A stretch of DNA of 64,000 bases, from positions 15,377-79,376 of the forward strand of contig JADFJB010000003.1 of assembly GCA_022566355.1 (NCBI GenBank), in the 5' to 3' direction. Each line of letters starts with the position of its first letter. The stretch's first letter is position 1. This DNA comes from Candidatus Zhuqueibacterota bacterium. GTDB lineage: Bacteria; Zhuqueibacterota; JdFR-76; DREG01. Below are positions 7,871 through 54,190 of this stretch, piece after piece. The position numbers and the translations under genes were made by a program. The notes beneath the pieces are model-generated. The model had not been told where the DNA came from. It saw only the letters and a list, made by a program, of their open reading frames with translations, and ran no database searches.

Positions 7871-7900
7871 AGCTAGGTCTCCTTTTTTTTAGTGATATTT

Positions 7901-23009: not shown

Positions 23010-23135
23010 GGGATCACCTTCAATAAATACATATGGCACAATTTATAGTTATAAATTGTGAGAGATTTGGTTATCAAAAACAGTAGTTTCAATTAAAATA
23101 GGTATGTGGATTTTTTATGAGGTTGGATGGAAACA

Positions 23136-35602: not shown

Positions 35603-37081
35603 ATGATGAATTCTTCTAATAATCATGGCGATATGCCAGCCGAGGACTTTCGTAAATATGGCTACCAGTTAATCGATTGGATTGCAGATTTTTTTGCTGA
35701 AATCGATAAACACGCAGTCCTTCCGAATATTCAACCTGGTGATATTGTTAATAAATTACCCCATAGACCGCCGGTATCGTCCGAATCGATGGATAAGATT
35801 TTATCGGATATTGATAAAGTGATTATGCCCGGCATGACTCATTGGAATCATCCTAATTTCTTCGCTTACTTTTCTTCCAGTGGCTCGGCTCCCGGAGTGT
35901 TAGGAGAATTAATTGGCTCGGCTTTCAATATCAATGGCATGGTATGGCAATCCTGTCCATCATCGACCGAATTGGAAAAAGTGACAATGGATTGGCTGCG
36001 CCAATTATTGGGTCTTCCGGAAGAATATTGGGGCATCATTTACGACACGGCATCGACCAGTAATCTTCATGCAATCGCGGCTGCTCGGGAACAGTTGACT
36101 GATCTGAAACTCAGGGAAAAAGGAATGTGTGGCAGAACGGATGTACCGCGACTGAGAATTTATCTTTCCGAACATGCTCATTCTTCGGTGGATAAAGCTG
36201 CCATCACATTGGGTTTTGGCATGGATTCAATTTGCAAGATCCCTGTTGATGAAGCTTTCAGGATGAAGCCAGCATTATTGCAGGAAGCAATCCAGGCTGA
36301 TCGCAGCAAAGGGTGGCGGCCGTTTTGTGTCGTGGCAACTATTGGGACGACATCAACCACGAGTGTAGATCCGACTTCTGAAATAGCCGATATTTGTGAG
36401 CGTGAAAATTTGTGGCTGCATGTCGATGCGGCATATGGCGGTTCCGCTGCAATCCTGCCGGAAAAACGGGATCTGTTTTATGGTTGGGAACGAGCCGATT
36501 CGATTGTGATGAATCCGCATAAATGGATGTTTGTACCAATCGACTTAAGTGCATTTTATACGAGAAAACCTGCGTTATTACGCCAGGCATTCAGCTTAGT
36601 GCCGGAATACCTGAAAACCGAACATGACGAAGTAACGGACAACTTTATGGATTACGGATTTCAACTTGGCCGACGATTTCGATCGTTAAAACTATGGTTT
36701 GTACTTCGTTACTTTGGTCAGGAAGGATTGGCTAGCCGGATTCGTTACCACCTGGAATTAGCCAAAGAATTCATCCAATGGGTGGAGGATCACCCCTCGT
36801 TTGAAGTCATGGCGCCGGCGCCATTTAGTACGGTCTGTTTTCGATTTCATCCTGAAGGAACGGATGATGAAAATAAACTCAATCAGCTAAATGAAAAACT
36901 ATTACAGGCGATCAATGCAACGCATCAAATCTTCTTATCCCATACAAAACTTGGAGAAACTTATATTATTCGTTTTGCAATTTCGAATTTGAGAACCGAG
37001 AAAGAACATGTTGAAAGAGCTTGGAAACTTATCCAAACTGAAGCGCAAAAGTTGATTGATAGCTTCATGTATACAAGTTAA
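35603..37081 (+). CDS. PLP-dependent aromatic-L-amino-acid (tyrosine/tryptophan/DOPA-type) decarboxylase, group II
   Basis: Pyridoxal_deC family: HWNHPNFFAYF, SSSGSAPGVLGE and the PLP-Lys motif NPHKWMFVP. 492 aa. Confidence 0.9.
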   Translation: MMNSSNNHGDMPAEDFRKYGYQLIDWIADFFAEIDKHAVLPNIQPGDIVNKLPHRPPVSSESMDKILSDIDKVIMPGMTHWNHPNFFAYFSSSGSAPGVLGELIGSAFNINGMVWQSCPSSTELEKVTMDWLRQLLGLPEEYWGIIYDTASTSNLHAIAAAREQLTDLKLREKGMCGRTDVPRLRIYLSEHAHSSVDKAAITLGFGMDSICKIPVDEAFRMKPALLQEAIQADRSKGWRPFCVVATIGTTSTTSVDPTSEIADICERENLWLHVDAAYGGSAAILPEKRDLFYGWERADSIVMNPHKWMFVPIDLSAFYTRKPALLRQAFSLVPEYLKTEHDEVTDNFMDYGFQLGRRFRSLKLWFVLRYFGQEGLASRIRYHLELAKEFIQWVEDHPSFEVMAPAPFSTVCFRFHPEGTDDENKLNQLNEKLLQAINATHQIFLSHTKLGETYIIRFAISNLRTEKEHVERAWKLIQTEAQKLIDSFMYTS

Positions 37082-37085
37082 GCAA

Positions 37086-38015
37086 ATGGGACTTCGCGTT
37101 TTATTGTGGATATTTTTCCTGGCTGTTTTGTGGGGGCCTTCATTTCTGTTCATTAAAGTAGCTGTTCTTGAAATCCCGCCGTTTACCTTAATGACTGCTC
37201 GAGTAGGAATCGCCTCGCTAATTTTATATATCATACTACGCGCGAGCGGTAAAAAACTGACGCTTAATCCAGCAACCTGGCGGTCTTTTGCATTTATGGC
37301 TGTATTTGCCAATGCACTTCCTTTCGTCCTGTTTGGCTGGGGAGAAATCCATGTTGACAGTGCCCTGGCCGCCGTGTTAAATGGAACAACGCCAATTTTT
37401 ACTATCATTATTGCTCATTTTTTTATAAGTGATGATCGGTTGAATCTTGTAAAAATTATCGGAATTATCTTTGGATTCCTGGGAGTTGTCATTTTGTTTT
37501 TCCCATTTTTATCGAAAGGATTAACACTGGATACTCTCGGAGTTTTCGCCTTCATAGCCGCAGCTTTATGTTATGGAATATCCACAGTTTATGCCCGCAA
37601 GAAACTTCGGGGTTTACCGCCTTTAGTAGCGCCAACCGCTCAATTAATTTTGGCTACGATCTGTTTACTTCCATTTTCACTTATTATCGATCGACCATTT
37701 GAAATGAATTTTCCTTCCTGGAATGCAATCAATTCGGTATTGGCCTTGGCCATTTTTGGTTCTGCCATCGCATTTGCAACATTCTATCATATTCTGGAAA
37801 TGACTTCTGCCACGAATCTATCCATGGTTACTTACTTGATTCCGGTGATCGGTGTAATTCTCGGAGTTGTTTTTCTGGATGAAAAATTGGGCTGGTATGT
37901 TTATGTTGGTTGTGCGATTATTGTGTTGGGCATTATGGTTGTAAATGGCGTGTTTAATCAGTTTCTGGGCAGGAAGGTTGAAAATGAAATCATTGCAGCT
38001 AAACCTTCAGAATAA
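37086..38015 (+). CDS. DMT-superfamily (EamA-like) transporter
   Basis: 10 TM segments with a duplicated EamA architecture. Starts 5 bp after the decarboxylase stop. The track ORF starts at 37056; the Met at 37086 is preferred. Confidence 0.85.
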   Translation: MGLRVLLWIFFLAVLWGPSFLFIKVAVLEIPPFTLMTARVGIASLILYIILRASGKKLTLNPATWRSFAFMAVFANALPFVLFGWGEIHVDSALAAVLNGTTPIFTIIIAHFFISDDRLNLVKIIGIIFGFLGVVILFFPFLSKGLTLDTLGVFAFIAAALCYGISTVYARKKLRGLPPLVAPTAQLILATICLLPFSLIIDRPFEMNFPSWNAINSVLALAIFGSAIAFATFYHILEMTSATNLSMVTYLIPVIGVILGVVFLDEKLGWYVYVGCAIIVLGIMVVNGVFNQFLGRKVENEIIAAKPSE

Positions 38016-38978: not shown

Positions 38979-39215
38979 ATGGCATATGTGGTGAGCAAAA
39001 AATTAGATTGTCGATGGTTATACGACCCACTTCCAATTATCCGCTTAAGTTGTGCTGTTCGACAATTAAATGCTGGAGAAATCATTGAAATGATATCAAA
39101 TGATCCTGCAGCTTTGTATGATATGAAAGCATGGAGTAAATTAACCGGCCATACCGTACTAGAAACAACAAATCGCCCAGACCATACTTGTTTTTTAATT
39201 CAAAAAAAGATATAG
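38979..39215 (+). CDS. TusA-like sulfur-carrier family protein, with Asp in place of the canonical CPxP cysteine
   Basis: LDCRWLYDPLPIIRL...EMISNDPAALYDMKAW matches the TusA fold pattern. The canonical Cys position reads D, and a Cys occurs 5 residues earlier. Confidence 0.65.
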   Translation: MAYVVSKKLDCRWLYDPLPIIRLSCAVRQLNAGEIIEMISNDPAALYDMKAWSKLTGHTVLETTNRPDHTCFLIQKKI

Positions 39216-39224
39216 GAGATTTTC

Positions 39225-39464
39225 ATGGCTGAATATGAAATCAAAGAAACCTTGGATTGTAGTGGATTACTATGTTCAGAGCCGGTTATAAAAACAAGCA
39301 AAAAAATTAAAGAGTTAGAAGTAGGTGATGTATTTGAAATGATTTCCACCGACCCGGGTGCAATGCCCGATATGCAAGCATGGGCAAACCAGACCAAACA
39401 TGAACTGCTGGAGTCTAGTGAGGATGGGTCGCTGTACCGTTTTGTAATCAAAAAAACTCATTGA
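39225..39464 (+). CDS. tusA: TusA-family sulfurtransferase/sulfur carrier
   Basis: LDCSGLLCSEPVIKT matches the TusA LDxxGLxCPxP signature with Cys conserved. ...EMISTDPGAMPDMQAW. Confidence 0.7.
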   Translation: MAEYEIKETLDCSGLLCSEPVIKTSKKIKELEVGDVFEMISTDPGAMPDMQAWANQTKHELLESSEDGSLYRFVIKKTH

Positions 39465-39485
39465 ATTTTAAATGGAGGCAAAACC

Positions 39486-40007
39486 ATGTCAAAAGAAAAT
39501 GGCACTCGTCGCCTTGCTTTAATCTCTAGTAAAGGAACTTTAGATTGGGCGTACCCACCATTTATTATGGCGAGCGCTGCCGGAGCGATGGATTGGGAGG
39601 TGGCAATTTTTTATACTTTTTATGGTTTACCGCTTTTAAAGAAAAAATTGGATGCAACAGTTACCCCGATTGGTAATCCTGCCATGCCCATGAAAATGCC
39701 TTTTGGCCCGAAAGGTTTTCAAAACATTGATTGGAATATCCCAAATCTTTTGATGAGCAATATTCCCGGTTTCGACAATGTTGCTACAAGTTTAATGAAA
39801 CAGACCTTTAAGAAAAAAGGTGTTGCCACAATTGAAGAGCTGCGGGAAATGTGTATTGAGATGGACAACGTGCGCTTGATCGGTTGCCAGATGACGATGG
39901 ATGTTTTCGGTTTTAAACGAGAAGATTTTATAGATAAATGTGAAATTGGTGGTGCGGCGACTTTTTTGGAATACGCCGCAGATGCGGATGTAAATCTATT
40001 TATTTAG
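39486..40007 (+). CDS. DsrE/DsrF-like (DsrE2-type) sulfur-relay family protein
   Basis: 173 aa. DsrE-like Rossmann beta-alpha pattern (RLALISSKG...AAGAMDWEVAIFYTFYGL) with a conserved Cys (IGCQMTMD). Immediately downstream of two tusA-like genes, as in tusA-dsrE2 clusters. The family call is motif- and context-based. Confidence 0.5.
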   Translation: MSKENGTRRLALISSKGTLDWAYPPFIMASAAGAMDWEVAIFYTFYGLPLLKKKLDATVTPIGNPAMPMKMPFGPKGFQNIDWNIPNLLMSNIPGFDNVATSLMKQTFKKKGVATIEELREMCIEMDNVRLIGCQMTMDVFGFKREDFIDKCEIGGAATFLEYAADADVNLFI

Positions 40008-40071
40008 GTATCACACTTTCTTTGATTAGGATATGATACAAAATAGTAGGGTATACAGATTTTCTTGGAGA

Positions 40072-40170
40072 TGCTCACAGAAGGGTCGCTTTTTTCGCGA
40101 AGCTCAAGCAGCCGTATCTCTTAATCACGCTAACATTGCCGCGATTTATGAAGTTGATGAAAATCGATAA
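40072..40170 (+). pseudogene. relic of a Ser/Thr kinase gene (subdomain II-III fragment)
   Basis: Translates to ...RFFREAQAAVSLNHANIAAIYEVDENR*, the kinase consensus RFxREAxxxxxLxHPNIVxxYxVxE. It stands alone in intergenic DNA at the left edge of the GC-rich patch. Confidence 0.5.
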
Positions 40171-40279
40171 CCAGGCTTTTATCGCAAAGAAGGAGGCAAA
40201 GAAGATATTCTCGGAAGGTTGAGAAACGATTAAGCGTTACATGCGTGTTGTAGAGCAACCTGATTGAAAGACAGAGAAA

Positions 40280-41503
40280 ATGACCAAACAACAAGCACAA
40301 AAGACGGAGTGGACGGTCCGGGAACAGAAGGAACATCTGGATCGCCGTGCGAACTTCTTTATTCTTGATGTGCGCAACCGCGACGAGTTCTCCGTCTGGA
40401 AGATCGAGGGGTGGAAAACACCGCCCACATTGAACGTACCTTACTTCGAGATGTATGAGAAGGGCGGCAAGGACGACTTCATCGAGTCGATAATTGCCTA
40501 TATCGAGATCGAGTTGCTTGGACAGTTACCCAAGGACCGACCGATCTTGGCCGTTTGTTCCAAGGGCAACACCTCGGCATACGTGGCCGAAGGCCTATGT
40601 CAGCTCGGTTACGACGCATTCAACCTACAGGGTGGCATGCAGGCATGGGGCAACTTCTACGAGATCAACCCAGTCACCGAAAGCCGCGAGTTGAGCGTCT
40701 ACCAGATCAGCCGGCCAGCGCGTGGCTGCTTGAGTTACATCATCGTAAGCGATGGCCAAGCGGTGGTCATCGACCCGTTGCGCCATATCGAAACATACCT
40801 CGACATCGCGAGCGCGAAAGGATTCCAAATTGAACACATCATGGAGACCCACGGCCATGCCGATCATATTAGCGGTGGGTCAAAGCTGGCCAAACAGCTC
40901 AACCGACGGTACTACCTCCACCCTTACGACGGCATCCACCTCCTTGATATGCTACCAGCTCGCATTCCTTTCGAGTACCTGCGTGACGGTCAGGCGCTCT
41001 CGGTCGGCAAGGCGAAAATCCAAACCCTACATATCCCAGGTCACACACTTGGTAATGTGGCCTATCTTCTGAATGAAGCGTACTTGTTCACCGGTGACAG
41101 CATCTTTATCAACTCGATCGCCCGTCCGGATCTCGGTGGACGTGGGGAGACCTGGGCGGGGCTGCACTATCACTCCCTAAGAAGACTACTCGATTTTCCC
41201 GACACGACGTTTGTGCTACCGGGTCACTTCAGCACTCCACGCGAAGCCAACGTCGCCGGGCTTTTCATGGCTTCCTTGGGCGAGCTAAAGGAGAAGAACG
41301 AGGGCCTGCACATGGCCCAGAAGAGCGAAGATGCGTTTGTACAGTACATTTTGGGAAGCCTACCGGAGTTCCCGTCGCAGTACGTTGAGATCAAGCGGGT
41401 AAACGCGGGCCTGCTTCTCGTCGACGAAGTTAAGGCGAGTGAGCTTGAGCTAGGAAAAAACGTCTGCGCGTTGGCGCAAGCCTACGAAACAGAGTCGACT
41501 TGA
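40280..41503 (+). CDS. rhodanese domain - metallo-beta-lactamase fold fusion protein (persulfide dioxygenase-like); GC-rich, probably horizontally acquired
   Basis: N-terminal rhodanese with catalytic Cys loop (AVCSKGNTS). MBL motifs HIMETHGHADHISGG, HIPGHTLGN and GDSIF. The nucleotide composition is clearly GC-richer than the flanking DNA. The many long overlapping spurious ORFs in the track here are typical of GC-rich DNA. Confidence 0.8.
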   Translation: MTKQQAQKTEWTVREQKEHLDRRANFFILDVRNRDEFSVWKIEGWKTPPTLNVPYFEMYEKGGKDDFIESIIAYIEIELLGQLPKDRPILAVCSKGNTSAYVAEGLCQLGYDAFNLQGGMQAWGNFYEINPVTESRELSVYQISRPARGCLSYIIVSDGQAVVIDPLRHIETYLDIASAKGFQIEHIMETHGHADHISGGSKLAKQLNRRYYLHPYDGIHLLDMLPARIPFEYLRDGQALSVGKAKIQTLHIPGHTLGNVAYLLNEAYLFTGDSIFINSIARPDLGGRGETWAGLHYHSLRRLLDFPDTTFVLPGHFSTPREANVAGLFMASLGELKEKNEGLHMAQKSEDAFVQYILGSLPEFPSQYVEIKRVNAGLLLVDEVKASELELGKNVCALAQAYETEST

Positions 41504-41542
41504 GCACCGCATGAGTTGAGGAATCATAAGAAGGGATTAAGT

Positions 41543-41608
41543 ATGAGAATGACATTCGACAAGGTTCTGGATGCACGCGGGCTCGCCTGCCCCATGATCG
41601 GATATTAA
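41543..41608 (+). pseudogene. truncated tusA-like start (22 codons: MRMTFDKVLDARGLACPMIGY*)
   Basis: A canonical TusA N-terminal motif xLDxRGLxCP, cut short by a stop. Lies in the GC-rich patch directly after the rhodanese-MBL gene. Confidence 0.5.
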
Positions 41609-42170
41609 AACCAAGGCATATGCAACAATGGCCGAGGATTCTACTAAACTAATAGTATTTACATATAGTATTTACATAAAAAAATAGATGGTACCAGGCG
41701 TTGGGGGATAAATTCCATACAAGAGTTATTTTCGTGATACAAAGATTAAAAATCGATATTCTTTGATATTTGAGAGGATGCAAAGGCACAATTAGGAAAA
41801 TTACGGGGACAATTATTAAATGATCGGCAAACCATCCTCCACTACAAATTTCTCTCCAAACGCGACGACCACAATTGAAACAATTGGGTAGTTTCAAATG
41901 CGACAAAATTATCTATTTACACAAATATACAAACAAAGTCAAAAAATCATTGATTTTTAACTTATCAATTTGTAAAATTCAATATCGTAGAAACGGAAAT
42001 ATCTCCTGACTAAAATCAAAAACTATCTTGTAATAACCATATCATGATCGGCAAGACAATATTTCACTAAAAAAATTCAAATATCGCGTGCTGGCCAAGG
42101 TATTTCAGATATTTTCAAGATACTTAAGCAGAGCTTGGTCAAAACAATGAAAACTAACCTGGATCGTTAA

Positions 42171-43841
42171 ATGCAATTTGGATTCATTATCGACAACCGT
42201 AGATGTATTGGTTGCCACGCTTGTACTGTAGCATGTAAAGCAGAACATGATACTCCTCTGGGTGTCAATCGAACCTGGGTTAAATATATTGAGAAGGGTG
42301 AATTCCCAAACACACGCCGCTTGTTTTCGGTCATGCGCTGCAACCACTGTGCGGATGCGCCCTGTGTGGAAATTTGTCCTACCGGGTCCTTATTCACTCG
42401 TGAAGACGGCATCGTCGATTTTGATAAACGTCGCTGTATCGGCTGTAAAGCTTGCATGCAAGCCTGTCCCTACGACGCGCTTTACATCGACCCTGAAACG
42501 GATACAGCGGCAAAATGTAACTATTGCGCCCATCGAGTAGATATTGGTTTAGAGCCGGCTTGTGTAAATGTTTGTCCAACTCATGCGATCATTTCCGGTG
42601 ATATGGACGATCCGCAATCGGAAATATCTCAACTATTGGCTCACGAGAAAGTCACGGCAAGGAAAGTCGAAAAAGGAACTCAACCTAAATTGTTCTATAT
42701 CGATGGAGATGAGGCGTCTTTAAATCCAGCTGCAACAGATCAATCGAGTGATTATATGTGGAACTCACAAATCTCCGGAGTCGGCCATTTTGCCAGCTAT
42801 GCTGAAAATCGGATTGCAAGTTCTGATCCACAAGAATTGCTCAATCAATTAACCGGCAGTAACGGTGATGATAAACAATGGCTATCCAGTGAGAAAAACC
42901 CCAAAGAAAAAGTGCTAGTTCCTGAAAGCCAAGGTAGCGAAATTATCCAACAAAAAGCCAAAGATGTTGTCGAAGAAACAACCAAGCGAGTTTATGATAG
43001 TCCGGGTAAAGGAGTCTTGTGGGGTTGGGAAGTGCCGGCTTATATCTGGACCAAAGCGGTTTCAACGGGTGCATTCCTGGTTCCTTTCCTGGCATTCGTG
43101 GGTGGTTTTTCTTCGGTTAGCGACCCAGTTCAATGGCTTGGATTGAGCCTGGGATTGTTATTTCTTGTTTTAACCAATATTCTGCTAATTAAGGACTTGG
43201 ATCAGCCATTTAGATTTGCTTATGTTTTGCTAAGACCCCAGTGGCGATCCTGGCTGGTCCGTGGTGGCTATGCAATCACTTTTTATGGTGGATTGTTGAC
43301 CGCCGGGATTATTACAAAGTTAAGCGGATTAACCAATCTGGAAATTTTGGTAAAATGGCTTTGTGCAATCGTCGCAGTTATAACTTCTGTTTATACCGCA
43401 TTCTTACTTGCCCAGGCTAAAGGCCGCGATTTTTGGCAGAGTCCGATCTTACCGTTTCATATGATCGTTCACACAATGCTAGCTGGTGCTGCTATTTTTG
43501 CTTTTCTGTCACCCATAGCCGGATTTGATCAAAGTTGGCATACTTATTTGGATCATGTTTTTTACACGTTTATTATTCTAAACTTACTGATTATTAGTGT
43601 GGAGTTATTTACACCACACCCGACAGCAGATTCAAAGGTCGTTGTAGATATGATAATACGTGGACGGTTCAAGAGGCTATTCAAAGTGGGTGTTGTCATT
43701 ATGGGCAATATCGTTCCATTATTCTTTGTTTTGTTGGGCAGCCCGGAATTATTGCCGTTTGTGGGTTTGTTGATTTTGATGGGGATCTATTTCACAGAAC
43801 ATATCTGGGTGCTGGCGCCGCAACTGGTTCCATTAAGTTAG
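42171..43841 (+). CDS. fusion of 4Fe-4S ferredoxin-type electron-transfer subunit (PsrB/TtrB/DmsB-like) with NrfD/PsrC-like integral membrane quinone-interacting subunit
   Basis: N-terminal 4 Cys clusters (CIGCHACTVAC, CNHCADAPCVEICP, CIGCKACMQACP, CNYCAHRVDIGLEPACVNVCP) followed by about 300 aa with 8 or more hydrophobic helices. No signal or TAT peptide. Confidence 0.8.
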   Translation: MQFGFIIDNRRCIGCHACTVACKAEHDTPLGVNRTWVKYIEKGEFPNTRRLFSVMRCNHCADAPCVEICPTGSLFTREDGIVDFDKRRCIGCKACMQACPYDALYIDPETDTAAKCNYCAHRVDIGLEPACVNVCPTHAIISGDMDDPQSEISQLLAHEKVTARKVEKGTQPKLFYIDGDEASLNPAATDQSSDYMWNSQISGVGHFASYAENRIASSDPQELLNQLTGSNGDDKQWLSSEKNPKEKVLVPESQGSEIIQQKAKDVVEETTKRVYDSPGKGVLWGWEVPAYIWTKAVSTGAFLVPFLAFVGGFSSVSDPVQWLGLSLGLLFLVLTNILLIKDLDQPFRFAYVLLRPQWRSWLVRGGYAITFYGGLLTAGIITKLSGLTNLEILVKWLCAIVAVITSVYTAFLLAQAKGRDFWQSPILPFHMIVHTMLAGAAIFAFLSPIAGFDQSWHTYLDHVFYTFIILNLLIISVELFTPHPTADSKVVVDMIIRGRFKRLFKVGVVIMGNIVPLFFVLLGSPELLPFVGLLILMGIYFTEHIWVLAPQLVPLS

Positions 43842-43914
43842 GAAAGCGCCTAAAGCGCCAAAATTGCCAAATGCTTATTATCATATATTTTTTGGTTACC
43901 AATAGGAGAATTTA

Positions 43915-46776
43915 ATGTCCGACCGGAATTCGGGAAATCTAATTGAAAAAATAGCCGAGAAACTGCACCTCATTCCAAATCTACATACAGAAACTGGACC
44001 CGATCTTCAAAGTTTAACCGAAGCTGGCAAGCTAACGGATTTTCCTCCTATCGAAAAGTGGGACGATTGGGTTGAATATGAAGCGAAAAGCTGGCCGCGA
44101 CGCGACCCCAAGCATTATATGATCATACCAACGACATGCTTTAATTGTGAAGCCGGCTGTGGTTTACTAAGCTACGTCGACAAAGAGACTATGACTGTCC
44201 GAAAATTTGAGGGCAATCCTTATCATCCAGCCAGCCGAGGGCGGAATTGTGCTAAGGGGCCGGCAACGATCAATCAAATTAATGATGAGGACAGAATCCT
44301 TTATCCGATGAAACGAAAAGGCAAGCGCGGGGAAGGTGGCTGGGATCGCGTTTCGTGGGATGAAGTTTTGGATGATTTTTCGGGACGAATACGAAAAGCG
44401 CTTCAGGAGAAACGAAATAATGAAGTCGTTTATCACGTTGGTCGACCGGGTCATGAGGGTTATATGGATCGAATACTACAGTCCTGGGGTGTGGATGGCC
44501 ACAACAGCCACACCAATATTTGTTCTGCCGGTGCGCGATTTGGTTATGCGATTTGGCATGGTTTCGACCGGCCTTCTCCGGATCATGCCAATGCAAAATT
44601 AATATTGCTGATCTCTGCTCATCTTGAGTCCGGACATTATTTTAACCCTCATGCACAAAGAATAATAGAAGGATTAATGAACGGTTGCAAATTGGTGGTT
44701 ATGGATCCACGGCTCTCCAATACCGCCAGTATGGCTGATTATTGGCTGCCTACTTATCCAGGCAGTGAAGCGGCCGTGCTTTTGGCCATGGCAAAAGTGA
44801 TTCTCGATGAAAGCCTTTTCGATGAAAAATATTTACATGATTGGGTAAACTGGCAAGAGTTTCTGCAAAAAGAACATCCAACTGTAGAAGTAAACTTTGC
44901 TAATTTTATTCGATTGCTGAAAGAAACCTACCAGGAATACACACCGGAATTCGCCGCTAACGAAAGCGGAATTGATGCCGAGACCATTATTGAGGTCGCA
45001 CGCAAAATAGGTGAAGCCGGAAGTCGATTTTCATCCCATAATTGGCGCAGTGCGGGTAGCGGAAATTTAGGTGGCTGGGCTGTTTCGCGCTGTTTGCATT
45101 TTTTGAATGTGCTCACGGGTAGTGTCGGAACAGTGGGGGGGACGTCGCCAAGCGGTTGGAACAAATTTAAACCAACTGTCTTTGATAAGCCACCCGCACA
45201 AAAATTCTGGAATGAATTGCATTTTCCAAACGAATATCCGCTCGCACATTACGAAATGAGTTTTCTATTGCCGCATTTCTTGAAAGAGGGGAGAAGTAAA
45301 CTGGATGTGTATTTCACCCGGGTTTTTAATCCGGTATGGTCTTTTCCTGATGGTTTTACCTGGATTGAAGTATTACAGGATGAAAGCAAAATTGGCCTGC
45401 ACGCTGCCTTAACACCCACCTGGAATGAAACAGCGTTTTTTGCGGATTATGTTCTGCCGATGGGCCATGCAAGCGAGCGGCATGACTTGATCAGCTACGA
45501 GACCCATTCCGGCATGTGGATTGCTTTTCGTCAACCTGTTTTGCGTGAGGCTGCTCGAAAAATGGGTAATCCTGTCCAATTTACTTATGAGGCTAACCCT
45601 GGAGAAGTGTGGGAGGAGGACGAGTTTTGGGTCGAATTATCCTGGCGGATTGATCCGGATGGGAGCCTGGGGATTAAAAAACATTTTATGTCCCCTTATA
45701 GAAAGGGAGAAAAAATCACCATTGATGAATATTATCAATTCGTTTTTGATAATGTACCTGGGTTGCCGGAAAAAGCGGCTGAAAAAAAGTTGACTCCACT
45801 GGAATATATGCGAATTTACGGCGCTTTTGAGGTGGAGAAAACTTCATATCATAAGCATCTAAAACCGCTAACAAAAGAAGAATTAAAGAAAACTAAGGTG
45901 GATACAAAAACGGGAACGATTAAAACGAAAGAAAAAATTGTCGGTGTTTTTGCGGATGGAAAATCTTATGCCGGATTCCCGACGCCTTCTAAAAAGCAAG
46001 AGTTTTATTCCCAAACGATGGTCGATTGGAATTGGCCAGAATATAAAATTCCAATTTATATAAAAAGTCATGTTCATCCGGATCAAATGGATCGAAGCAA
46101 AGGAGAGTTCCCATTGGTGCCAACTTTTCGGTTACCGACCCTGATTCATTCCCGATCTGGTAATGCCAAATGGCTTATGGAAATTTCGAATCGCAATCCA
46201 ATTTGGATGCATACTTCAGATGGAAAAGACCTGGGAATAAAGACAGGGGATTTGCTGCGGGTAAATACAGACATCGGTTATTTTGTCGATCGGGTTTGGC
46301 TAACAGAAGGGATGAAACCGGGCATCGTGGCGTGTTCTCACCATCTCGGCAGGTGGCGGCGGCCACAAGATGCTAAGGGAAATCGATGGGCAACCAATTT
46401 GGTTTCCATCAAACAAATGAAAAATGGCAAATGGAAAATGAGGCAATTGGATGGCATCCGCCCCTATAAAAGCAACGATCCGGATTCGTCCCGTATCTTT
46501 TGGAGCGATGGCGGTGTACATCAAAATCTCACTTTCCCTGTTCATCCGGATCCAGTCAGCGGTATGCATTGCTGGCATCAAAAGGTGAGAATTGAGAAAG
46601 CGCATCCGGAAGATAAATATGGCGATGTGGTGGTCGATACCAATCGCTCCTTTGAAATTTATAAAGAATGGTTGAAAAAAACTCGTCCGGCGCCAGGTCC
46701 AGGAGGATTGAGAAGGCCGCTTTGGCTGAATAGACCGCTCCGTCCATCGGAAGAGATGTTTTACATCGATTTATAA
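43915..46776 (+). CDS. molybdopterin (bis-MGD) oxidoreductase catalytic subunit, Psr/Phs/Ttr/Soe-like, without twin-arginine signal
   Basis: 953 aa. N-terminal FeS motif CFNCEAGCG...C. Molybdopterin and C-terminal molybdop-binding domain (GIVACSHHLGRW). No RRxFLK motif in the first 70 residues. Confidence 0.9.
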   Translation: MSDRNSGNLIEKIAEKLHLIPNLHTETGPDLQSLTEAGKLTDFPPIEKWDDWVEYEAKSWPRRDPKHYMIIPTTCFNCEAGCGLLSYVDKETMTVRKFEGNPYHPASRGRNCAKGPATINQINDEDRILYPMKRKGKRGEGGWDRVSWDEVLDDFSGRIRKALQEKRNNEVVYHVGRPGHEGYMDRILQSWGVDGHNSHTNICSAGARFGYAIWHGFDRPSPDHANAKLILLISAHLESGHYFNPHAQRIIEGLMNGCKLVVMDPRLSNTASMADYWLPTYPGSEAAVLLAMAKVILDESLFDEKYLHDWVNWQEFLQKEHPTVEVNFANFIRLLKETYQEYTPEFAANESGIDAETIIEVARKIGEAGSRFSSHNWRSAGSGNLGGWAVSRCLHFLNVLTGSVGTVGGTSPSGWNKFKPTVFDKPPAQKFWNELHFPNEYPLAHYEMSFLLPHFLKEGRSKLDVYFTRVFNPVWSFPDGFTWIEVLQDESKIGLHAALTPTWNETAFFADYVLPMGHASERHDLISYETHSGMWIAFRQPVLREAARKMGNPVQFTYEANPGEVWEEDEFWVELSWRIDPDGSLGIKKHFMSPYRKGEKITIDEYYQFVFDNVPGLPEKAAEKKLTPLEYMRIYGAFEVEKTSYHKHLKPLTKEELKKTKVDTKTGTIKTKEKIVGVFADGKSYAGFPTPSKKQEFYSQTMVDWNWPEYKIPIYIKSHVHPDQMDRSKGEFPLVPTFRLPTLIHSRSGNAKWLMEISNRNPIWMHTSDGKDLGIKTGDLLRVNTDIGYFVDRVWLTEGMKPGIVACSHHLGRWRRPQDAKGNRWATNLVSIKQMKNGKWKMRQLDGIRPYKSNDPDSSRIFWSDGGVHQNLTFPVHPDPVSGMHCWHQKVRIEKAHPEDKYGDVVVDTNRSFEIYKEWLKKTRPAPGPGGLRRPLWLNRPLRPSEEMFYIDL

Positions 46777-46797
46777 TATGCTCTAGTTAGCTGGATA

Positions 46798-47123
46798 ATG
46801 AAACGAAAGAAAATACCATACGGAACAAAATTACCTGTCATGCTAACCTTACGTGAACGGGATATCATCCGTGATGAGACATTCTGCGATCAAGACTTTG
46901 CAAAATTGGCTTTAGTAGACGGCAAAAGGATTAAAGTCGAACTGTCATTGGGGACATCGAGGAAATTCAGGGGTACATAGCAGCCGAGGCAAATCATACG
47001 AAAAATAAAAAACTCAAGAAAGAACTTGATCGCCTTTTCGATAAACTTCAGGTCTTTCTGGATACTTACGATGATCAACATGAATTAGACAGCTTACAAA
47101 TTCATCCAGCCGACCGGGAATAA
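46798..47123 (+). CDS. small hypothetical protein, apparent -1 frameshift at GGGG 46950-46953
   Basis: The track ORF 46798..46980 ends ...LSLGTSRKFRGT*. The +2 frame continues DIEEIQGYIAAEANHTKNKKLKKELDRLFDKLQVFLDTYDD... to a stop at 47121-47123. Adding one G joins them into about 107 aa. Confidence 0.3.
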
Positions 47124-47246
47124 CGCTTGTTTGATTTTTGTTCCTGGCTCGTGGCCGGCGGCTGGTGATAGCGTTATTATAAGCGGTTCTTCAATTTTAA
47201 TCATTTTTAGAAGCTTTTTCCCCTTAAAACGTCATTTATTACTTAT

Positions 47247-48974
47247 ATGGAAATCTCCAAAATAACCGATCATATTCGAACTTATAACAAAACACTATTT
47301 CGCCGTGATATTATCGCTGGGCTCACCGTCACCTTTGTGGCAATCCCGCAATCGATGGTCTATGCACTTATTGCTGGTGTTGAACCGCAATATGGTTTGT
47401 ACGCTTTTATGGTGGGTTCAATTGTCGGATCGATTTTTGGTTCATCACGTCATCTGAACACTGGGCCAACGAATGCCACATCAATAGTTATTGCCAGCAC
47501 CCTGGCTTTATATTCTGTTGATGACCAATTTTTGAAGATGGTTTTTCTATTGGGATTCCTTTCTGGATGTTTGCAACTAGGTGCCGGACTTTTAAAGTTG
47601 AGCAACTTAACTCATTTTCTTTCTCGCTCAGTATTAGCTGGTTTTATCGGCGGGGCGGGCCTTTTTATCATTGTCAACCAGATGCCCAATTTAATGGGAT
47701 TTTCAAAAAATACTAATTCCTCTGTATTTGAGGGAGTAAAACACATATTTAACAGTTTGGATCAAATTCAACCAACTGTTTTATTGGTGGGAATTGGATC
47801 TATTTTATTAACACTCCTTATTAATAGGCTAAGCCCAAAAACAACTTCAGGAATTCCCATTTTACCGTCGTACCTGATTTCTATTTTATTGTCAGCGGCA
47901 ATTGTTGTGATATTTGATCTTGGAGATACAGTCAAAGTGGTGGGAGATATCCCCAGGTCTCTGCCACCTTTAAGCATGCCACTATTTGAGTTGGAATCTA
48001 TTCAAACTCTGATGCAAGGCGCAATAGCGATAGCATTTATAGGATTAGCAGAAGCTACGTCTGCAGCCAAAATAGTAGCAGACTTTGCTGGTGATAAGCT
48101 GCAAGTTGACAAAGAATTTAGAGGCCAGGGACTTGCAAAAATTGCAACATCCTTTTTTAGCGGAATACCTGTTTCGGGCTCATTTACCAGGAGTTTACTT
48201 TGCTACAGAGCAGGTGCAGAGACAAAAATGGCGAATATTATGGCCGGTATTTTTGTTGCAATTGCCGTGTTATTTTTTGGTCCGGTTATTAAACACATCC
48301 CATTAGCGGCTTTGGCTGGTATTGTTATGTTGATTGCAAGCAATATGGTTGATTGGAAATACGTTAAAATGGCTCTTCGCTCATCGAATGTGGATTCATT
48401 AGCTATTCTTGCAACTTTTTTTGCTGCCCTGTTTTTTTCATTGGTCACTGCAATTTATATTGGTGTGGGGTTTTCCCTGGTCCTGTTCCTTCGCAGGGTA
48501 AAGAAGCCTAACCTTGTTGAGTTGATATACGATGATAAGTTCGGGTTCAAAGAAAAAACTGAATCTAATCAAAGTTCCATTCCTGAGCTTACCATTATCC
48601 ATGTTGAAGGAGATGTTTTTTTTGCCAGCGTAGATTCTGTGGATGATGATATTCAAAAGATTGCTCAACGAAATGCGGTAAAAGTGATTATACTTAGATT
48701 GAAAAGAGCCTTTAGCCTGGATGCAACTTCTATGATGGTATTTATGAAAATCTATAAGGATTTAGAAAAACAAGGCAAATTGTTGCTCATCTCAGGAGCT
48801 GGCGGGCAAGTTAAAAAGATTATTCACGAATCAGGTTTGGATAAAGTAATTGGCGAAGACCACATTTTTTATTCAGATGAGAACTTATTTAAATCCACAC
48901 GCGCTGCGATTAGTTATGCGCTTCAATTCATCAATGCGAATTATGGTACAAATTATACGATGTCTAATTTGTAA
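47247..48974 (+). CDS. SulP-family (SLC26) anion/sulfate permease with C-terminal STAS domain
   Basis: 575 aa. The N-terminal SulP signature region (TVTFVAIPQSMVYALIAGVEPQYGLY), multiple TM segments and a STAS-like C-terminus. Confidence 0.9.
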   Translation: MEISKITDHIRTYNKTLFRRDIIAGLTVTFVAIPQSMVYALIAGVEPQYGLYAFMVGSIVGSIFGSSRHLNTGPTNATSIVIASTLALYSVDDQFLKMVFLLGFLSGCLQLGAGLLKLSNLTHFLSRSVLAGFIGGAGLFIIVNQMPNLMGFSKNTNSSVFEGVKHIFNSLDQIQPTVLLVGIGSILLTLLINRLSPKTTSGIPILPSYLISILLSAAIVVIFDLGDTVKVVGDIPRSLPPLSMPLFELESIQTLMQGAIAIAFIGLAEATSAAKIVADFAGDKLQVDKEFRGQGLAKIATSFFSGIPVSGSFTRSLLCYRAGAETKMANIMAGIFVAIAVLFFGPVIKHIPLAALAGIVMLIASNMVDWKYVKMALRSSNVDSLAILATFFAALFFSLVTAIYIGVGFSLVLFLRRVKKPNLVELIYDDKFGFKEKTESNQSSIPELTIIHVEGDVFFASVDSVDDDIQKIAQRNAVKVIILRLKRAFSLDATSMMVFMKIYKDLEKQGKLLLISGAGGQVKKIIHESGLDKVIGEDHIFYSDENLFKSTRAAISYALQFINANYGTNYTMSNL

Positions 48975-49386
48975 TTGTATGTTGACTCTAAAAACCAGCT
49001 TTCTTTCGAATCTTGAAAACCGATACATTGATTCCATAAATAAATATTATATTATAAACATCATTTGAGGTCAACAGAAAGTCGGTTTTCACAGTAATCA
49101 CTAGCGAAGCTTCGCCTCAACCGACAAGAAAAACAAGCTTAATAAACTCGAAATGCTAATATCGAAATTCTAAACAAATTCCAAATACACCAAACAAAAC
49201 GAAGAAACCTATTGAGGAGAGTCAATCAATTTTGCCCTGTTTTTAATTTTGTACATTGGAATTTTCGATATTGTTTAGAATCTAGAATTTTGGATTTCGA
49301 ATTTTAAATCAAAGTAATTTTATTTAATCGCAAAAAATCTTGACTCAAAATCAAAGTTGGATTTCTGATAAAACATTTAATTATAT

Positions 49387-49983
49387 ATGTTTGAAAACTT
49401 ATCTGCCGCCATCATCGCAGGGGGAAAAAGTGCCAGGTTTGGAGAGCATAAAGGGTTGGCTGTTCTAAATTCTCGACAAATGATTGACTATTCGATTGTC
49501 CTTGCAAAAGAGATCGGGTTTTCTCAATTCCTGGTATATGGCAAGGAAAATTACTTTGACCAAATTGACATACCTTGTTATTCCGATATCATCCCACATT
49601 GTGGACCAATGGGTGGGATTTATACAGCTTTGGTGAAAGCACAAACAAATTTAGTCGCAACCATTCCTTGTGATATGCCTTTTCTAACGGCAGAAGTGTA
49701 TAGATTGCTTTATGATAATTATGGGGAAAACAAGCCTGTTATTGCAGTTTCAGAAAACGGCGTAGAATCCCTGGTAGCAATATGGCCAAAAACATATGAA
49801 AGTAAATTAAGGGATGCAATTCACAAGAAAGTTTTTACAATTCATGCATTCATTCAAAATAATGATATCCCTAAAATATCCATTCCTGAATTAATGCCGG
49901 ATTATGAGGAGAAAATTTTTCTTAATATTAACACGAAAGAAGATTTAGCAGCTATCCAAAAAAATTCTTATTGGAGTAAATAA
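49387..49983 (+). CDS. mobA: molybdenum cofactor guanylyltransferase MobA
   Basis: AAIIAGGKSARFG..K... and IPCDMPFL motifs of the MobA-like NTP transferase family. Confidence 0.8.
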   Translation: MFENLSAAIIAGGKSARFGEHKGLAVLNSRQMIDYSIVLAKEIGFSQFLVYGKENYFDQIDIPCYSDIIPHCGPMGGIYTALVKAQTNLVATIPCDMPFLTAEVYRLLYDNYGENKPVIAVSENGVESLVAIWPKTYESKLRDAIHKKVFTIHAFIQNNDIPKISIPELMPDYEEKIFLNINTKEDLAAIQKNSYWSK

Positions 49984-50010: not shown

Positions 50011-50391
50011 TTATATTTTCCTGTTTATCAGTTTCAGACGCGTCGCTGGAAGGCGTTTAAGTCGTTGATTTCTCGGATCAACTTCGATGCCCGCAGATTC
50101 AAGTGCAGTCACACCGAGAATAGGCTCAACGTCTTTTCCTCCAAAAATGACAGTTCCACCTACGAAATCACCCATAAATTCAATGTCAGCGGTAGTTATA
50201 TCCATTTTGATTTTACTGCCATCGGCGAGTTCATAAATTCTTTGGCCTTTGGGTTTTAGACCTATACTTTTAAGATGCTGCCCTGGAACGAGAGTATCTA
50301 TAGCACCGGTATCCACGAGAAAAAGTCCTTCCCAACTCTTGTTAGATTCAGCAGGGTTACGTATTGTGACTGTAACATGAGTGGATCCCAT
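50011..50391 (-). CDS. retropepsin-like (clan AA) aspartic protease
   Basis: Active-site motif LVDTGAIDTLV. 126 aa. The local nucleotide composition is GC-richer than the surroundings. Confidence 0.7.
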   Translation of the reverse strand: MGSTHVTVTIRNPAESNKSWEGLFLVDTGAIDTLVPGQHLKSIGLKPKGQRIYELADGSKIKMDITTADIEFMGDFVGGTVIFGGKDVEPILGVTALESAGIEVDPRNQRLKRLPATRLKLINRKI

Positions 50392-50976: not shown

Positions 50977-52197
50977 TTACTTTGTTACCACCCAGGGAAA
51001 TAAAAAAGCGTCGATAAGTTCGCCCTCGTACAAAGATACACCAGCATCAATGAGTATAAACCCATTCGCATTGACAATGGTCGAAATCATGTGCGAACCT
51101 TGTTTCTCCAAAGGATAAGCTATTGGTTTTCCTTGTGAATTTGTTGTGATTTGAACACGCATAAGATGAGCTCTGTTTAATTTGTTTTGAATAGGCTCTT
51201 GTAATTCCGCTTGCAAGGGGAAAGCGGTCTTAACTTTTCCACATAGCTGATGAATCATTGGATGGATAAAATAGGAATAACACATAAATGCTGAAACGGG
51301 ATTTCCGGGTAATCCAAACAAAAGAGTATTCTCTTTTTTAGCGAACAGAAGCGGTTTGCCTGGTTTTATCCGAACTCGCCAAAATAAAGTTTCGAATCCC
51401 ACTTTCTGTACCGCTTCTTTAATATGGTCGTGAGGTCCCACTGAAACACCGCCAGATAAAATGATGAGGTTGCAATTTTCCATAATCCGCTCAAGTAATT
51501 CGACTGTTTGATCCAGGCTATCAGGAACTTTTTCCACGGCTTTCACTAAACCGCCGGATTGTTGCAGTGCTGTGGACAGCATGATTCCATTTGAATCGCG
51601 AATTTGCCAAGGTTGTACAGGCTGATCAAATGGGACAAGTTCAGTTCCGGTAACAATTATGGCTGCTTGTGGTCTCGCATAGACGGATAATTGAGATAAG
51701 CCTACTGAAGCCAATAAAGCAATCTGGGGGGGATGGATTTCCATACCCTTGGGGATTAGAAGATCGCCTGCTTTAAATTCCTCACCTTCATAGCGAATAT
51801 TTTGTCCCTTCTTTTTAACCTGCAAAATCTTAACCATTGAGCCGGTTACTTCTACTTCTTCAATTGGGACAACCGTATCAGCACCTTCAGCCACCATGGC
51901 GCCTGTACTGATTCTAACAGCTTTACCCGATATTAATTTTTCCTGAAATGGTATTCCCGCCTGGCTTTCTCCAACGATTTTGAGAGACACCGGGTTTGCA
52001 GATGAAGTGGATCGGATATCATCCCATCGCAATGCAAAGCCATCCATGGCGCTGTTGGTATAACGGGGTGAAGGCTCCGGTGCAAGAATATCTTCTGCAG
52101 ATATTAACCCTAACGCATCTTGCAATTTTGCCGAAGTTATTTCTTTTTCCGGTAAATGATCTTGAATGATTTTAGATGCTTCTTGTATTGAAATCAT
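50977..52197 (-). CDS. moeA: molybdopterin molybdotransferase MoeA
   Basis: MoeA N-terminal and central domains plus the MoCF-binding domain with LILSGGVSVG. Confidence 0.9.
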   Translation of the reverse strand: MISIQEASKIIQDHLPEKEITSAKLQDALGLISAEDILAPEPSPRYTNSAMDGFALRWDDIRSTSSANPVSLKIVGESQAGIPFQEKLISGKAVRISTGAMVAEGADTVVPIEEVEVTGSMVKILQVKKKGQNIRYEGEEFKAGDLLIPKGMEIHPPQIALLASVGLSQLSVYARPQAAIIVTGTELVPFDQPVQPWQIRDSNGIMLSTALQQSGGLVKAVEKVPDSLDQTVELLERIMENCNLIILSGGVSVGPHDHIKEAVQKVGFETLFWRVRIKPGKPLLFAKKENTLLFGLPGNPVSAFMCYSYFIHPMIHQLCGKVKTAFPLQAELQEPIQNKLNRAHLMRVQITTNSQGKPIAYPLEKQGSHMISTIVNANGFILIDAGVSLYEGELIDAFLFPWVVTK

Positions 52198-54189: not shown

Positions 54190-54190
54190 A

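Follow-up and report, generated by a model that had tools for sequence, protein, structure and literature searches.

A predicted PSRLC3-type, Soe-like molybdoenzyme encoded among sulfur-carrier and persulfide-dioxygenase-like genes in Candidatus Zhuqueibacterota

The gene cluster

We analyzed a stretch of 64 kb (64,000 nucleotides, hereafter the window) from a contig of a Candidatus Zhuqueibacterota bacterium (JADFJB010000003.1), in which two plus-strand genes, a fused iron-sulfur (FeS)-NrfD subunit followed by a catalytic subunit, lie among genes for sulfur transfer, anion transport and molybdenum cofactor synthesis. Judged from sequence comparison, the pair at 42171-46776 is a two-gene, Soe-like molybdoenzyme of the PSRLC3 type, i.e., a non-phototroph member of the PSRLC3/Soe-like family otherwise named from green sulfur bacteria. 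Open reading frame (ORF) listing and domain scans located every gene that an earlier sequence-only reading had placed at 38979-49983, at the same coordinates and on the plus strand; that reading requires correction for moeA, which lies on the minus strand, unlike the plus-strand genes of the cluster. The genes are as follows (aa, amino acids; MBL, metallo-beta-lactamase; bis-MGD, bis-molybdopterin guanine dinucleotide).

38979-39215, plus strand: TusA-like protein 1, 78 aa; Pfam TusA, 55.1 bits; degenerate, active-site Cys replaced by Asp
39225-39464, plus strand: TusA sulfur carrier 2, 79 aa; Pfam TusA, 80.3 bits; active-site Cys kept
39486-40007, plus strand: DsrE2-type sulfur carrier, 173 aa; NF047629, 205.8 bits (cutoff 210)
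40280-41503, plus strand: rhodanese-MBL fusion, 407 aa, probable persulfide dioxygenase/sulfurtransferase; Pfam Rhodanese and Lactamase_B
about 41516-41690, plus strand: tusA relic, a frameshifted and truncated pseudogene; 30-aa ORF with its continuation in the +1 frame
42171-43841, plus strand: fused FeS-NrfD subunit (BC); Pfam Fer4_11 and NrfD in a single ORF
43915-46776, plus strand: catalytic bis-MGD subunit of the MopB type (A), 953 aa; Pfam Fe4S4, Molybdopterin and Molydop_binding
47247-48974, plus strand: SulP/STAS anion permease, 575 aa; Pfam Sulfate_transp (306 bits) and STAS; TIGR00815, 369.7 bits (cutoff 380)
49387-49983, plus strand: MobA, molybdenum cofactor guanylyltransferase (bis-MGD synthesis); Pfam NTP_transf_3; NF001457, 107.9 bits (cutoff of 164 not reached)
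50977-52197, minus strand: MoeA, molybdopterin molybdotransferase; Pfam MoeA_N, MoCF_biosynth and MoeA_C; NF007960, 327.9 bits (below the cutoff of 440)
53027-55978, plus strand: ModA, TOBE/Mop, ModB and ModC, molybdate ABC uptake; TIGR01256 modA, 184.3 bits (above the cutoff of 62.5); Pfam TOBE, BPD_transp_1 and ABC_tran

Architecture and membrane side of the molybdoenzyme

The BC protein carries 16 Cys residues in four ferredoxin motifs that make up a 4x[4Fe-4S] domain (about residues 1-180), followed by a linker and by an NrfD/PsrC domain of about eight transmembrane (TM) helices (about residues 285-545; NrfD match at residues 281-525). The ORF listing agrees with the earlier description of a BC-then-A order, as in ttrBCA, with B and C fused. 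The FeS domain begins directly at the first Cys motif, which aligns to position 44 of the TtrB profile. For BC and A alike, the ORF opens with the earliest start codon that the preceding in-frame stop allows; thus, no upstream extension is possible, and the missing twin-arginine translocation (Tat) signal is not a start-codon artefact. No RRxF(L/I)K-like motif was found in the first 120 residues of BC or A. The first 80 residues of A have a maximum 19-residue hydropathy of -0.02 and contain no hydrophobic stretch, and a Tat motif is present in none of the 120 close homologs listed. The absence of a Tat signal from the catalytic subunit, which had been proposed from the letters of the sequence, is therefore upheld.

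The FeS domain is joined to the first NrfD helix without a TM segment between them and, consequently, lies on the side of the NrfD N terminus. About 11 Lys and Arg residues fall in the predicted cytoplasmic loops compared to about one outside, with the N terminus inside (one weakly hydrophobic helix is inferred in this count). This positive-inside pattern places the FeS domain in the cytoplasm and agrees with a cytoplasmic Mo module, independently of the Tat argument. The two lines of evidence agree, and a cytoplasm-facing enzyme with an NrfD anchor and Soe-like topology, as predicted earlier, is supported by the sequence. Periplasmic Psr, Phs and Ttr enzymes are marked by a twin-arginine signal and usually by a TorD-type chaperone; the window enzyme shows neither mark, and Pfam and NCBIfam scans found no Nitrate_red_del/TorD gene in the cluster.

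The catalytic subunit family and its counterpart in green sulfur bacteria

On the available alignments, the family of the A subunit is very strongly conserved. The 120 homologs listed, with 73-83% identity to A and lengths of 931-996 aa, belong to KSB1, Calditrichota, SAR324, Acidobacteria and Bacteroidota. Thermomicrobium roseum, Rhodococcus jostii RHA1 and several haloarchaea have the protein as well, at 56-62% identity. Family identity thus spans 56-83%, from Bacteroidota, KSB1, Chlorobi and Acidobacteria to Actinobacteria, Chloroflexi and haloarchaea. A genome scan yielded at least 530 confirmed relatives of A, with matches in more than 500 species genomes. In alignments, Cys203, the Mo ligand, falls on the ligand Cys of both ArrA and PsrA, and the motif HTN[IV]CS, in which the ligand pair Cys-Ser is invariant, is present in all 120 homologs listed. 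The nearest solved proteins by sequence are ArrA (1.8e-39) and PsrA (1.9e-34), which are also the nearest folds; the AlphaFold model used in that comparison is mediocre (mean pLDDT of 67, below 50 at residues 195-222) and served for fold placement only, the active site being too weak for pocket analysis. The complexes PsrABC/PhsABC and ArrAB (2vpw, 6cz7) share with the window enzyme a Cys ligand to Mo, a four-cluster FeS partner and an NrfD anchor; however, identity is only about 21% over the structural alignment, and these are Tat-exported, periplasmic reductases. All curated formate dehydrogenase, Psr/Phs, Ttr, Arr and Dms models score far under their cutoffs; for the NCBIfam reductase models applied to A and BC, the scores are 166.6 versus a cutoff of 694 for PhsA, 123 versus 1750 for TtrA, 122 versus 1600 for ArrA, and 192 versus 416 for TtrB.

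In four Chlorobi loci (L058, L060, L067 and L070, from Chlorobium, Chlorobiaceae and other Chlorobiota), A has a full-length counterpart with 69-70% identity, and BC is 46-51% identical to its PSRLC3 counterpart; the two-gene architecture, fused BC followed by MopB, is likewise found in these Chlorobiaceae. Green sulfur bacteria have been described as having 'two genes encoding PSRLC3' (PMC5473276), and PSRLC3 is, in the wording of PMC9324843 (citing Frigaard & Bryant 2008; Gregersen et al. 2011), 'inferred to be sulfite oxidase'. Dahl et al. 2013, as quoted in PMC8232776, reported SoeABC genes to be universal in purple and green sulfur bacteria, a statement in which PSRLC3 is treated as SoeABC. 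Published trees place PSRLC3 with sulfite-oxidase assignments, and homologs in another FCB (Fibrobacteres-Chlorobi-Bacteroidetes) candidate phylum have already been named SoeABC on phylogenetic grounds. The sequence-only reading had envisaged an undescribed sulfur pathway. This cannot be maintained, because the fused-BC, Tat-less two-gene form is PSRLC3, named in 2008, and the window protein is about 70% identical to the Chlorobiaceae protein.

The likeness to the Chlorobi loci extends beyond the order of the two genes and the missing Tat signal to linkage with DsrE2 and TusA and to an anion exporter gene adjoining the catalytic gene. In L058, the order is fused BC, A, a TauE/SafE-family exporter, DUF1634, DsrE2, rhodanese, TusA, dsrN, dsrC, dsrA, dsrB and dsrL. 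The TauE/SafE gene directly follows A in all four Chlorobi loci (12792-14258 in L058; also L060, L067 and L070); it occupies the slot held by SulP in Bacteroidota, and in L058 the DUF1634 protein comes after it. There are four differences. An oxidative dsr operon is linked to the enzyme in Chlorobi, whereas the scanned ORFs of the window include no dsr, sox or hdr genes (a few ORFs lay outside the scan), in agreement with the earlier statement that such genes are absent. The likely source of sulfite in the window is the rhodanese-MBL protein, in place of reverse Dsr. The exporter is SulP in the window and TauE in Chlorobi. Finally, the host of the window is a non-phototrophic FCB-group bacterium (PorV of the type IX secretion system, T9SS, and a SusC-like receptor).

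Relation to SoeABC and to Tat-bearing relatives

Canonical SoeABC is, according to the works cited for it (Dahl 2013; Boughanemi 2020), an established cytoplasmic sulfite:quinone oxidoreductase. The reference set consists of Allochromatium vinosum Alvin_2491-2489, Aquifex aeolicus aq_1234/1232/1231 and Ruegeria pomeroyi. These enzymes and the window enzyme have in common a cytoplasm-facing complex iron-sulfur molybdoenzyme with Tat-less Mo and FeS modules, a haem-less NrfD anchor, a Cys ligand, a catalytic subunit of about 109 kDa, linkage to tusA, dsrE2 and dsr, and the same proposed reaction. It should be noted that this likeness to canonical SoeA (D3RNN8, aq_1234) was judged from architecture and published descriptions. 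SoeABC differs in having separate genes in the order A-B-C, compared to fused BC followed by A in 61 of 61 loci in which the upstream gene was seen, and in its distribution: a published NrfD survey placed SoeC only in Proteobacteria, a few Clostridia and Aquificae, unlike the phyla of the fused form. SoeA, which is cytoplasmic and has a Cys ligand, has been assigned to the sulfur/arsenic oxyanion clade together with ArrA and PsrA, and bSreA/SoeA has been described as a large radiation so conserved that clustering at 50% nearly collapses it (PMC10100899); the strong conservation estimated for the window enzyme's family matches this behavior.

Several full-length relatives were checked as candidates for canonical SoeA and rejected. 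P0121 and P0125 have fused BC (P0125 with an MBL-rhodanese gene), P0141 and P0126 are Tat-bearing B-C-A forms, and P0171, P0174, P0196, P0250 and P0260 are Tat-bearing as well; P0145 and P0146 belong to the same family, as frameshifted assemblies, and P0164 and P0192 are mistranslated high-GC sequences. A tblastn search against plasmids returned only family members, Tat-type B-C-A relatives and unrelated molybdoenzymes of 700-760 aa (Caballeronia, Ralstonia, Agrobacterium vitis, Variovorax). The Psr of Caldithrix abyssi was not taken as a family member, the genome paper describing a standard ABC Psr.

The fusion follows the family closely. A fused FeS-NrfD gene lies directly upstream of A in 61 of the 68 loci with enough upstream sequence, no unfused case was seen among them, and the fusion is kept in distant members (P0121, 58% identity; a Myxococcota protein, 40%). 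Outside the family, the sequences closest to it encode B and C separately, in B-C-A order: P0126 (48%), Sulfurovum (38%), P0141 (34%) and Azoarcus (31%). Downstream of A, P0126, Azoarcus and Sulfurovum encode a TorD-like chaperone and an extra FeS protein, whereas TorD was not found in P0141; in these three loci (L091 for P0126, L088 for the Azoarcus plasmid pAZKH and L089 for the Sulfurovum plasmid), the FeS protein is about 360 aa long, and L091 also has a c-type cytochrome gene. All three N-termini of A that were read (Azoarcus, P0126, P0141) carry a twin-arginine signal. Among the sampled relatives, fused BC thus goes with a Tat-less A in seven of seven cases, and separate B and C with a Tat signal in three of three, two of which also have a TorD-like gene. 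The Tat-type B-C-A group (P0126; Azoarcus sp. KH32C pAZKH; the Sulfurovum mangrovi plasmid) shares the ttrBCA-like order with the window enzyme; with their twin-arginine signal, separate B and C, TorD and extra FeS protein, these enzymes are therefore periplasmic, and the window enzyme has none of these features. Shared sequence features are a 'YPPxExW' segment, which follows the signal peptide of the exported forms and is also kept in the Tat-less forms before the Fe4S4 motif, and a C-terminal tail, RPAPGP.GLRRP, common to the window enzyme and P0126. The simplest reading of these sequences is a single inversion event, in which export would have been lost and the FeS module would have become tethered to the anchor; the perfect association between B-C fusion and loss of Tat would then be a clear example of a respiratory molybdoenzyme flipped across the membrane.

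The sulfur-transfer proteins

TusA1 has the motif LDCRWLYDPLP, with Asp at the position of the active-site Cys of the canonical LDxxGLxCPxP, and is, on this evidence, probably a non-catalytic paralogue adjoining the intact TusA2, in which the motif LDCSGLLCSEP retains the active-site Cys. TusA2 is 40-46% identical to the Chlorobiaceae TusA encoded beside the same enzyme, and the window DsrE2 is 69-71% identical to the Chlorobiaceae DsrE2 beside PSRLC3, which in L058 reaches 214.8 bits against NF047629, i.e., above the cutoff that the window protein narrowly misses.

The top solved relatives of the rhodanese-MBL protein are the CstB-type persulfide dioxygenase (PDO)-rhodanese proteins 3tp9 (7.6e-29) and 3r2u (2.3e-24), followed by the PDOs 4ysb, 5ve3 and 4chl. 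The metal motifs HGHADH, HIPGHT, GD and PGH and the rhodanese Cys93 are intact, so that 40280-41503 has both parts of a CstB/Blh-type protein, an MBL PDO domain with its metal ligands and a rhodanese domain with its Cys. The domain order, rhodanese followed by MBL, is the reverse of the PDO-then-rhodanese order of the CstB/Blh type, and the score against the Blh equivalog NF040641 is 60.3 versus a cutoff of 625. The same reversed order is found in locus L073, where the equivalent gene product is 53% identical to that of the window, and in one Rhodococcus gene.

Downstream of this gene, the tusA relic consists of a 30-aa ORF that ends in KVLDARGLACPMIGY (= LDARGLACPMIGY) before the stop codon, while the +1 frame runs on as SDIKTKAYATMAEDSTKLIV (= DIKTKAYATMAEDSTKLIV) and then reaches a stop. 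L073 has an intact tusA after rhd-mbl, at the position of the relic, which therefore marks a rearrangement of the window cluster.

Gene neighborhoods across genomes

Neighboring genes up to 7 kb from the enzyme were counted in the 52 loci whose flanks were long enough, and sulfide:quinone oxidoreductase (SQR) was counted over 80 genome loci. An MBL-rhodanese fusion of about 470 aa was found in 23 of the 52 loci, SulP, often abutting the catalytic gene, in 21, DsrE2 in five and TusA in four; at least one of these sulfur genes is present in 33 of 52. Type II SQR (3e-125 to human SQOR) occurs in 10 of the 80 loci (L053, L059, L063, L068, L013, L038, L045, L047, L052, L072); no SQR or regulator gene was found in the window. 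In L053, L059, L063 and L068 (Saprospiraceae/Lewinellaceae/Bacteroidota), the SQR gene sits between BC and A, followed by an ORF of about 210 aa in L059 and L063; in L059 this ORF encodes a S-adenosylmethionine (SAM) methyltransferase.

More distant carriers keep related sets. The order in Rhodococcus pRHL3 (L086) is DsrE, TusA, BC, A and Mrp/NBP35, with three MBL-fold genes and ArsR-type regulators around; Natrinema (L087) has BC, A and Mrp/NBP35; and in Thermomicrobium (L085) a CsoR-type regulator is encoded directly upstream (6084-6362). A Myxococcota relative with 40% identity keeps MBL-rhodanese, YeeE-type transporters, fused BC and A together. MobA or MoeA is also near the enzyme in L013 and L080. 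The full arrangement of the window is common only to L073 and, in part, Rhodococcus. Most carriers are aerobes or oxidative phototrophs. The co-location goes beyond chance: these associations are repeated from phylum to phylum.

Two further observations concern genes next to the enzyme in these loci. The gene for the Mrp/NBP35 Fe-S carrier ATPase overlaps the end of the catalytic gene (10802-11971 in L086 and 11005-12165 in L087), and the protein may be a dedicated maturation factor for cytoplasmic assembly, instead of TorD. Small regulators of the CsoR/CstR and ArsR/BigR types adjoin the enzyme in L085 (the gene given above), L098 (2009-2179) and L086, which is consistent with persulfide-responsive control.

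The Staphylococcus aureus cst operon comprises CstR, TauE, CstA, CstB and SQR, and the mitochondrial pathway comprises SQOR, ETHE1, TST and SUOX. Around the enzyme family we likewise find type II SQR, CstB-like PDO-rhodanese, TusA-type carriers, an anion exporter and CsoR/CstR or ArsR regulators. The difference is in the sulfite step, which would here be catalyzed by a quinone-reducing membrane bis-MGD enzyme and not by a soluble enzyme of the (Moco) sulfite-oxidase family. The recurring set reproduces the mitochondrial and staphylococcal logic, with the window enzyme's family in the sulfite-oxidase slot.

Proposed function and alternatives

We consider it probable, although far from certain, that the PSRLC3-type enzyme oxidizes sulfite to sulfate on the cytoplasmic face of the membrane and passes the electrons to quinone, that the sulfite comes from the rhodanese-MBL protein, and that SulP exports the product. 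TusA2 and DsrE2 would hand sulfane sulfur to the CstB-like rhodanese-MBL protein, which would convert persulfide to sulfite. The 953-aa, Cys-ligated bis-MGD subunit would dock on the cytoplasmic face and convert sulfite to sulfate, two electrons passing from the Mo centre through four [4Fe-4S] clusters to the haem-less, eight-helix, quinone-binding NrfD anchor and on to the quinone pool. The SulP permease, a candidate sulfate or sulfite exporter, would release the anion product, and MobA, MoeA and ModABC would supply the bis-MGD cofactor. Of this scheme we infer the sulfite substrate, the oxidative direction, the role of SulP, the flow through TusA and DsrE2, and co-expression of the genes. 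The oxidative order of events, from persulfide through sulfite and sulfate to export, had been put forward by the sequence-only reading and fits the conserved neighbors, namely PDO-rhodanese, SQR, SulP or TauE, TusA/DsrE2 and, in Chlorobi, oxidative dsr; comparison between genomes thus supports it well. In the window, the PSRLC3/Soe-like enzyme is combined with a probable sulfite source of the persulfide-dioxygenase type, as opposed to reverse Dsr.

To our knowledge, sulfite is a toxic intermediate of every cytoplasmic sulfur-oxidation route (reverse Dsr, sHdr and persulfide dioxygenase), and in the heterotrophs with SQR and PDO that we know of, its fate is usually left open or put down to chemistry. 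The enzyme family occupies the very place where one would look for a sulfite oxidase; its members are widespread, and most of the time they carry wrong names. If surveys based on KEGG Orthology (KO) terms or gene names miss it, direct sulfite oxidation in sediments and soils would be under-counted. According to one survey of marine sediment, SoeABC was not detected there (PMC12345210). The value of the observations lies in the breadth and conservation of a mis-annotated family, in the link between fusion and Tat loss, and in culturable hosts: Rhodococcus jostii RHA1, Thermomicrobium roseum, Natrinema, Flavilitoribacter nigricans and Lutibacter aestuarii carry the enzyme, and its function is directly testable there.

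A number of points weigh against this assignment. PDO-rhodanese fusions such as BpPRF and CstB can yield thiosulfate instead of free sulfite. The assignment of sulfite as substrate draws on gene context and on analogy with the three-gene SoeABC, and the literature that could be searched gave no biochemical or genetic test of the two-gene form. Orthology with SoeA is only one possibility: the family may be its sister group, or it may have arisen convergently from ttrBCA-like enzymes by loss of the Tat signal. Of the full-length entries checked from the 150 best 50%-cluster representatives, none was a Tat-less relative with A-B-C order, the closest relatives outside the family are the Tat-exported B-C-A enzymes with ttr-like gene order, and the IMG label of close homologs is a generic COG name, not SoeA. 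When an Aquifex enzyme of the bSreA/SoeA lineage was purified for the first time, it was described as a sulfur reductase (PMC10100899). The spacing of the genes gives no indication of a single operon, with gaps of 273 bp between dsrE2 and rhd-mbl, 668 bp between rhd-mbl and BC, 471 bp between A and sulP, and 413 bp between sulP and mobA. The five intergenic regions have no k-mer or palindrome in common beyond what shuffled sequences give, and promoter and terminator scans are at chance level (43 promoter sites versus 38 +/- 7 expected; 10 terminators versus 13.7 +/- 3.2). An Rfam search gave no match, Moco riboswitch included. Identity between the window SulP and the SulPs that accompany the enzyme in other genomes is only 26-34%; the window SulP adjoins Mo-cofactor and molybdate genes, and a molybdate-related role is possible.

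Among the alternatives, it is conceivable but unlikely that the enzyme oxidizes thiosulfate or carrier-bound sulfur, i.e., a persulfide or thiosulfonate on TusA or DsrE2, the carriers being direct substrates and not feeders of the dioxygenase. The thiosulfate expected from PDO-rhodanese fusions would suit this role. The DsrE and TusA genes abut BC-A in Rhodococcus and L073 and stand in the same cluster in Chlorobi and in the window, YeeE-type thiosulfate or sulfur transporters lie beside some relatives, and TusA and DsrE3 are known thiosulfonate carriers (PMC8551704). However, about 47 of the 52 loci have no TusA or DsrE nearby and yet often have PDO, SulP or SQR; therefore, a carrier-bound substrate cannot be general. 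Characterized relatives of the lineage act, moreover, on the small oxyanion sulfite.

An enzyme working in the opposite direction, a cytoplasm-facing, quinol-dependent reductase of sulfur, polysulfide, thiosulfate or tetrathionate (similar to a 'bacterial Sre', a description that goes back to the Aquifex enzyme) fed by TusA, DsrE2 and rhodanese, also seems unlikely to us. It would be in keeping with ArrA and PsrA, both reductases, as the nearest solved structures, with PhsA and TtrB among the better NCBIfam matches, with the ttr-like exported relatives and with the sulfur reductase of the bSreA/SoeA lineage mentioned above; sulfurtransferases accompany Psr-type reductases too (PMC6338057). The reductase models nevertheless remain far under their cutoffs, and the partners point the other way: O2-dependent PDO and SQR in aerobic heterotrophs (Saprospiraceae, Cyclobacteriaceae, Rhodococcus, Thermomicrobium, haloarchaea) and the oxidative dsr operon in anoxygenic phototrophs. 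An adjoining anion exporter, SulP or TauE, suits sulfate or sulfite as the product, not sulfide. The sequence-only reading had regarded the reductive direction as equally open; the recurring set of SQR, PDO-rhodanese, carriers and exporter makes it less likely and supports sulfite oxidation.

The clustering itself could be partly fortuitous, with SulP, MobA, MoeA and ModABC forming a molybdate/cofactor island, with tusA-tusA-dsrE2 and rhd-mbl separately regulated, and with no single pathway operon. The wide gaps, the rearrangement indicated by the tusA relic and the lack of a shared intergenic motif would all be expected in that case; the window SulP has a weak match to MFS_MOT1 (molybdate transporter), and the closest relatives (L001-L012, 75-81% identity) mostly have no SulP, TusA or DsrE2 nearby. 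Nonetheless, different SulP subfamilies, TauE, PDO-rhodanese, SQR and TusA/DsrE have been recruited independently in different phyla, which points to functional coupling even without co-transcription, and we judge a fortuitous arrangement to be improbable.

It is quite improbable that the two-gene enzyme is no orthologue of proteobacterial SoeABC and arose by an independent inversion of a periplasmic ttrBCA-like enzyme, in which the Tat signal was lost and B and C were fused, with a persulfide or thiosulfonate held by TusA/DsrE2 as its substrate. If true, this would amount to an O2-independent, quinone-linked route from sulfane sulfur to sulfate at Mo, parallel to reverse Dsr and sHdr.

A reading of the Mo enzyme as formate dehydrogenase or formate:quinone oxidoreductase can practically be dismissed, in spite of homologs from Calditrichaeota and Bacteroidetes metagenome-assembled genomes deposited as 'formate dehydrogenase', the JGI name 'anaerobic selenocysteine-containing dehydrogenase' for close homologs, and an NrfD-anchored complex of Chlorobi, Actinobacteria and Chloroflexi tentatively named FqoABC (PMC8076601), since the ligand pair is an invariant Cys-Ser and not the Sec- or Cys-His of formate dehydrogenases (Cys-His at the aligned position in Shewanella FdhA), formate dehydrogenase structures and NCBIfam models rank below ArrA, PsrA, DmsA and PhsA (TIGR01591, 139.3 versus a cutoff of 666; TIGR01553, 98.4 versus 814), and the neighborhood is sulfur-related throughout. 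Grouping with formate dehydrogenases or nitrate reductases, which the earlier reading had named as evidence against itself, was accordingly not seen. The Fqo template CT0494 is the stand-alone NrfD of a three-gene psrABC (CT0496-0494) and is not fused; CT0494-0496 was therefore rejected as the green-sulfur-bacterial counterpart of the window enzyme. Databases list close homologs as 'molybdopterin-dependent oxidoreductase', 'formate dehydrogenase' and 'selenocysteine-containing dehydrogenase'; judging from the invariant Cys-Ser motif and from the sulfur genes around the enzyme, the latter two labels (P0020, P0095, P0103 and JGI entries) are wrong.

Other genes of the window

Between mobA and moeA lies a 126-aa ORF (50011-50391, minus strand) with weak matches to retropepsin-like aspartyl protease domains, which seems to have no connection with the cluster. 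A gene for a group II pyridoxal phosphate (PLP)-dependent decarboxylase overlaps an EamA-family transporter gene (35603-38015, plus strand), immediately upstream of rpiB and of the sulfur genes. The top match of the decarboxylase is diaminobutyrate decarboxylase, far under the cutoff, and a sulfur amino acid, e.g., cysteine sulfinate, is a conceivable substrate. About 15 kb upstream of the sulfur cluster and on the opposite strand, a cystathionine gamma-lyase/synthase-family gene (21849-23039, minus strand) stands beside a gene similar to cystathionine beta-synthase/cysteine synthase (23136-24107, minus strand); cystathionine gamma-lyase and cystathionine beta-synthase are the classic endogenous pair producing H2S and persulfide. 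Genes at 1484-11299 (minus strand) and 27730-30655 (plus strand) encode a PorV-like T9SS protein, a SusC-like TonB-dependent receptor with CarboxypepD_reg, and a Ser/Thr kinase followed by a long tetratricopeptide repeat (TPR) protein, and are consistent with an FCB-group host (KSB1/Calditrichota/Bacteroidota-like).

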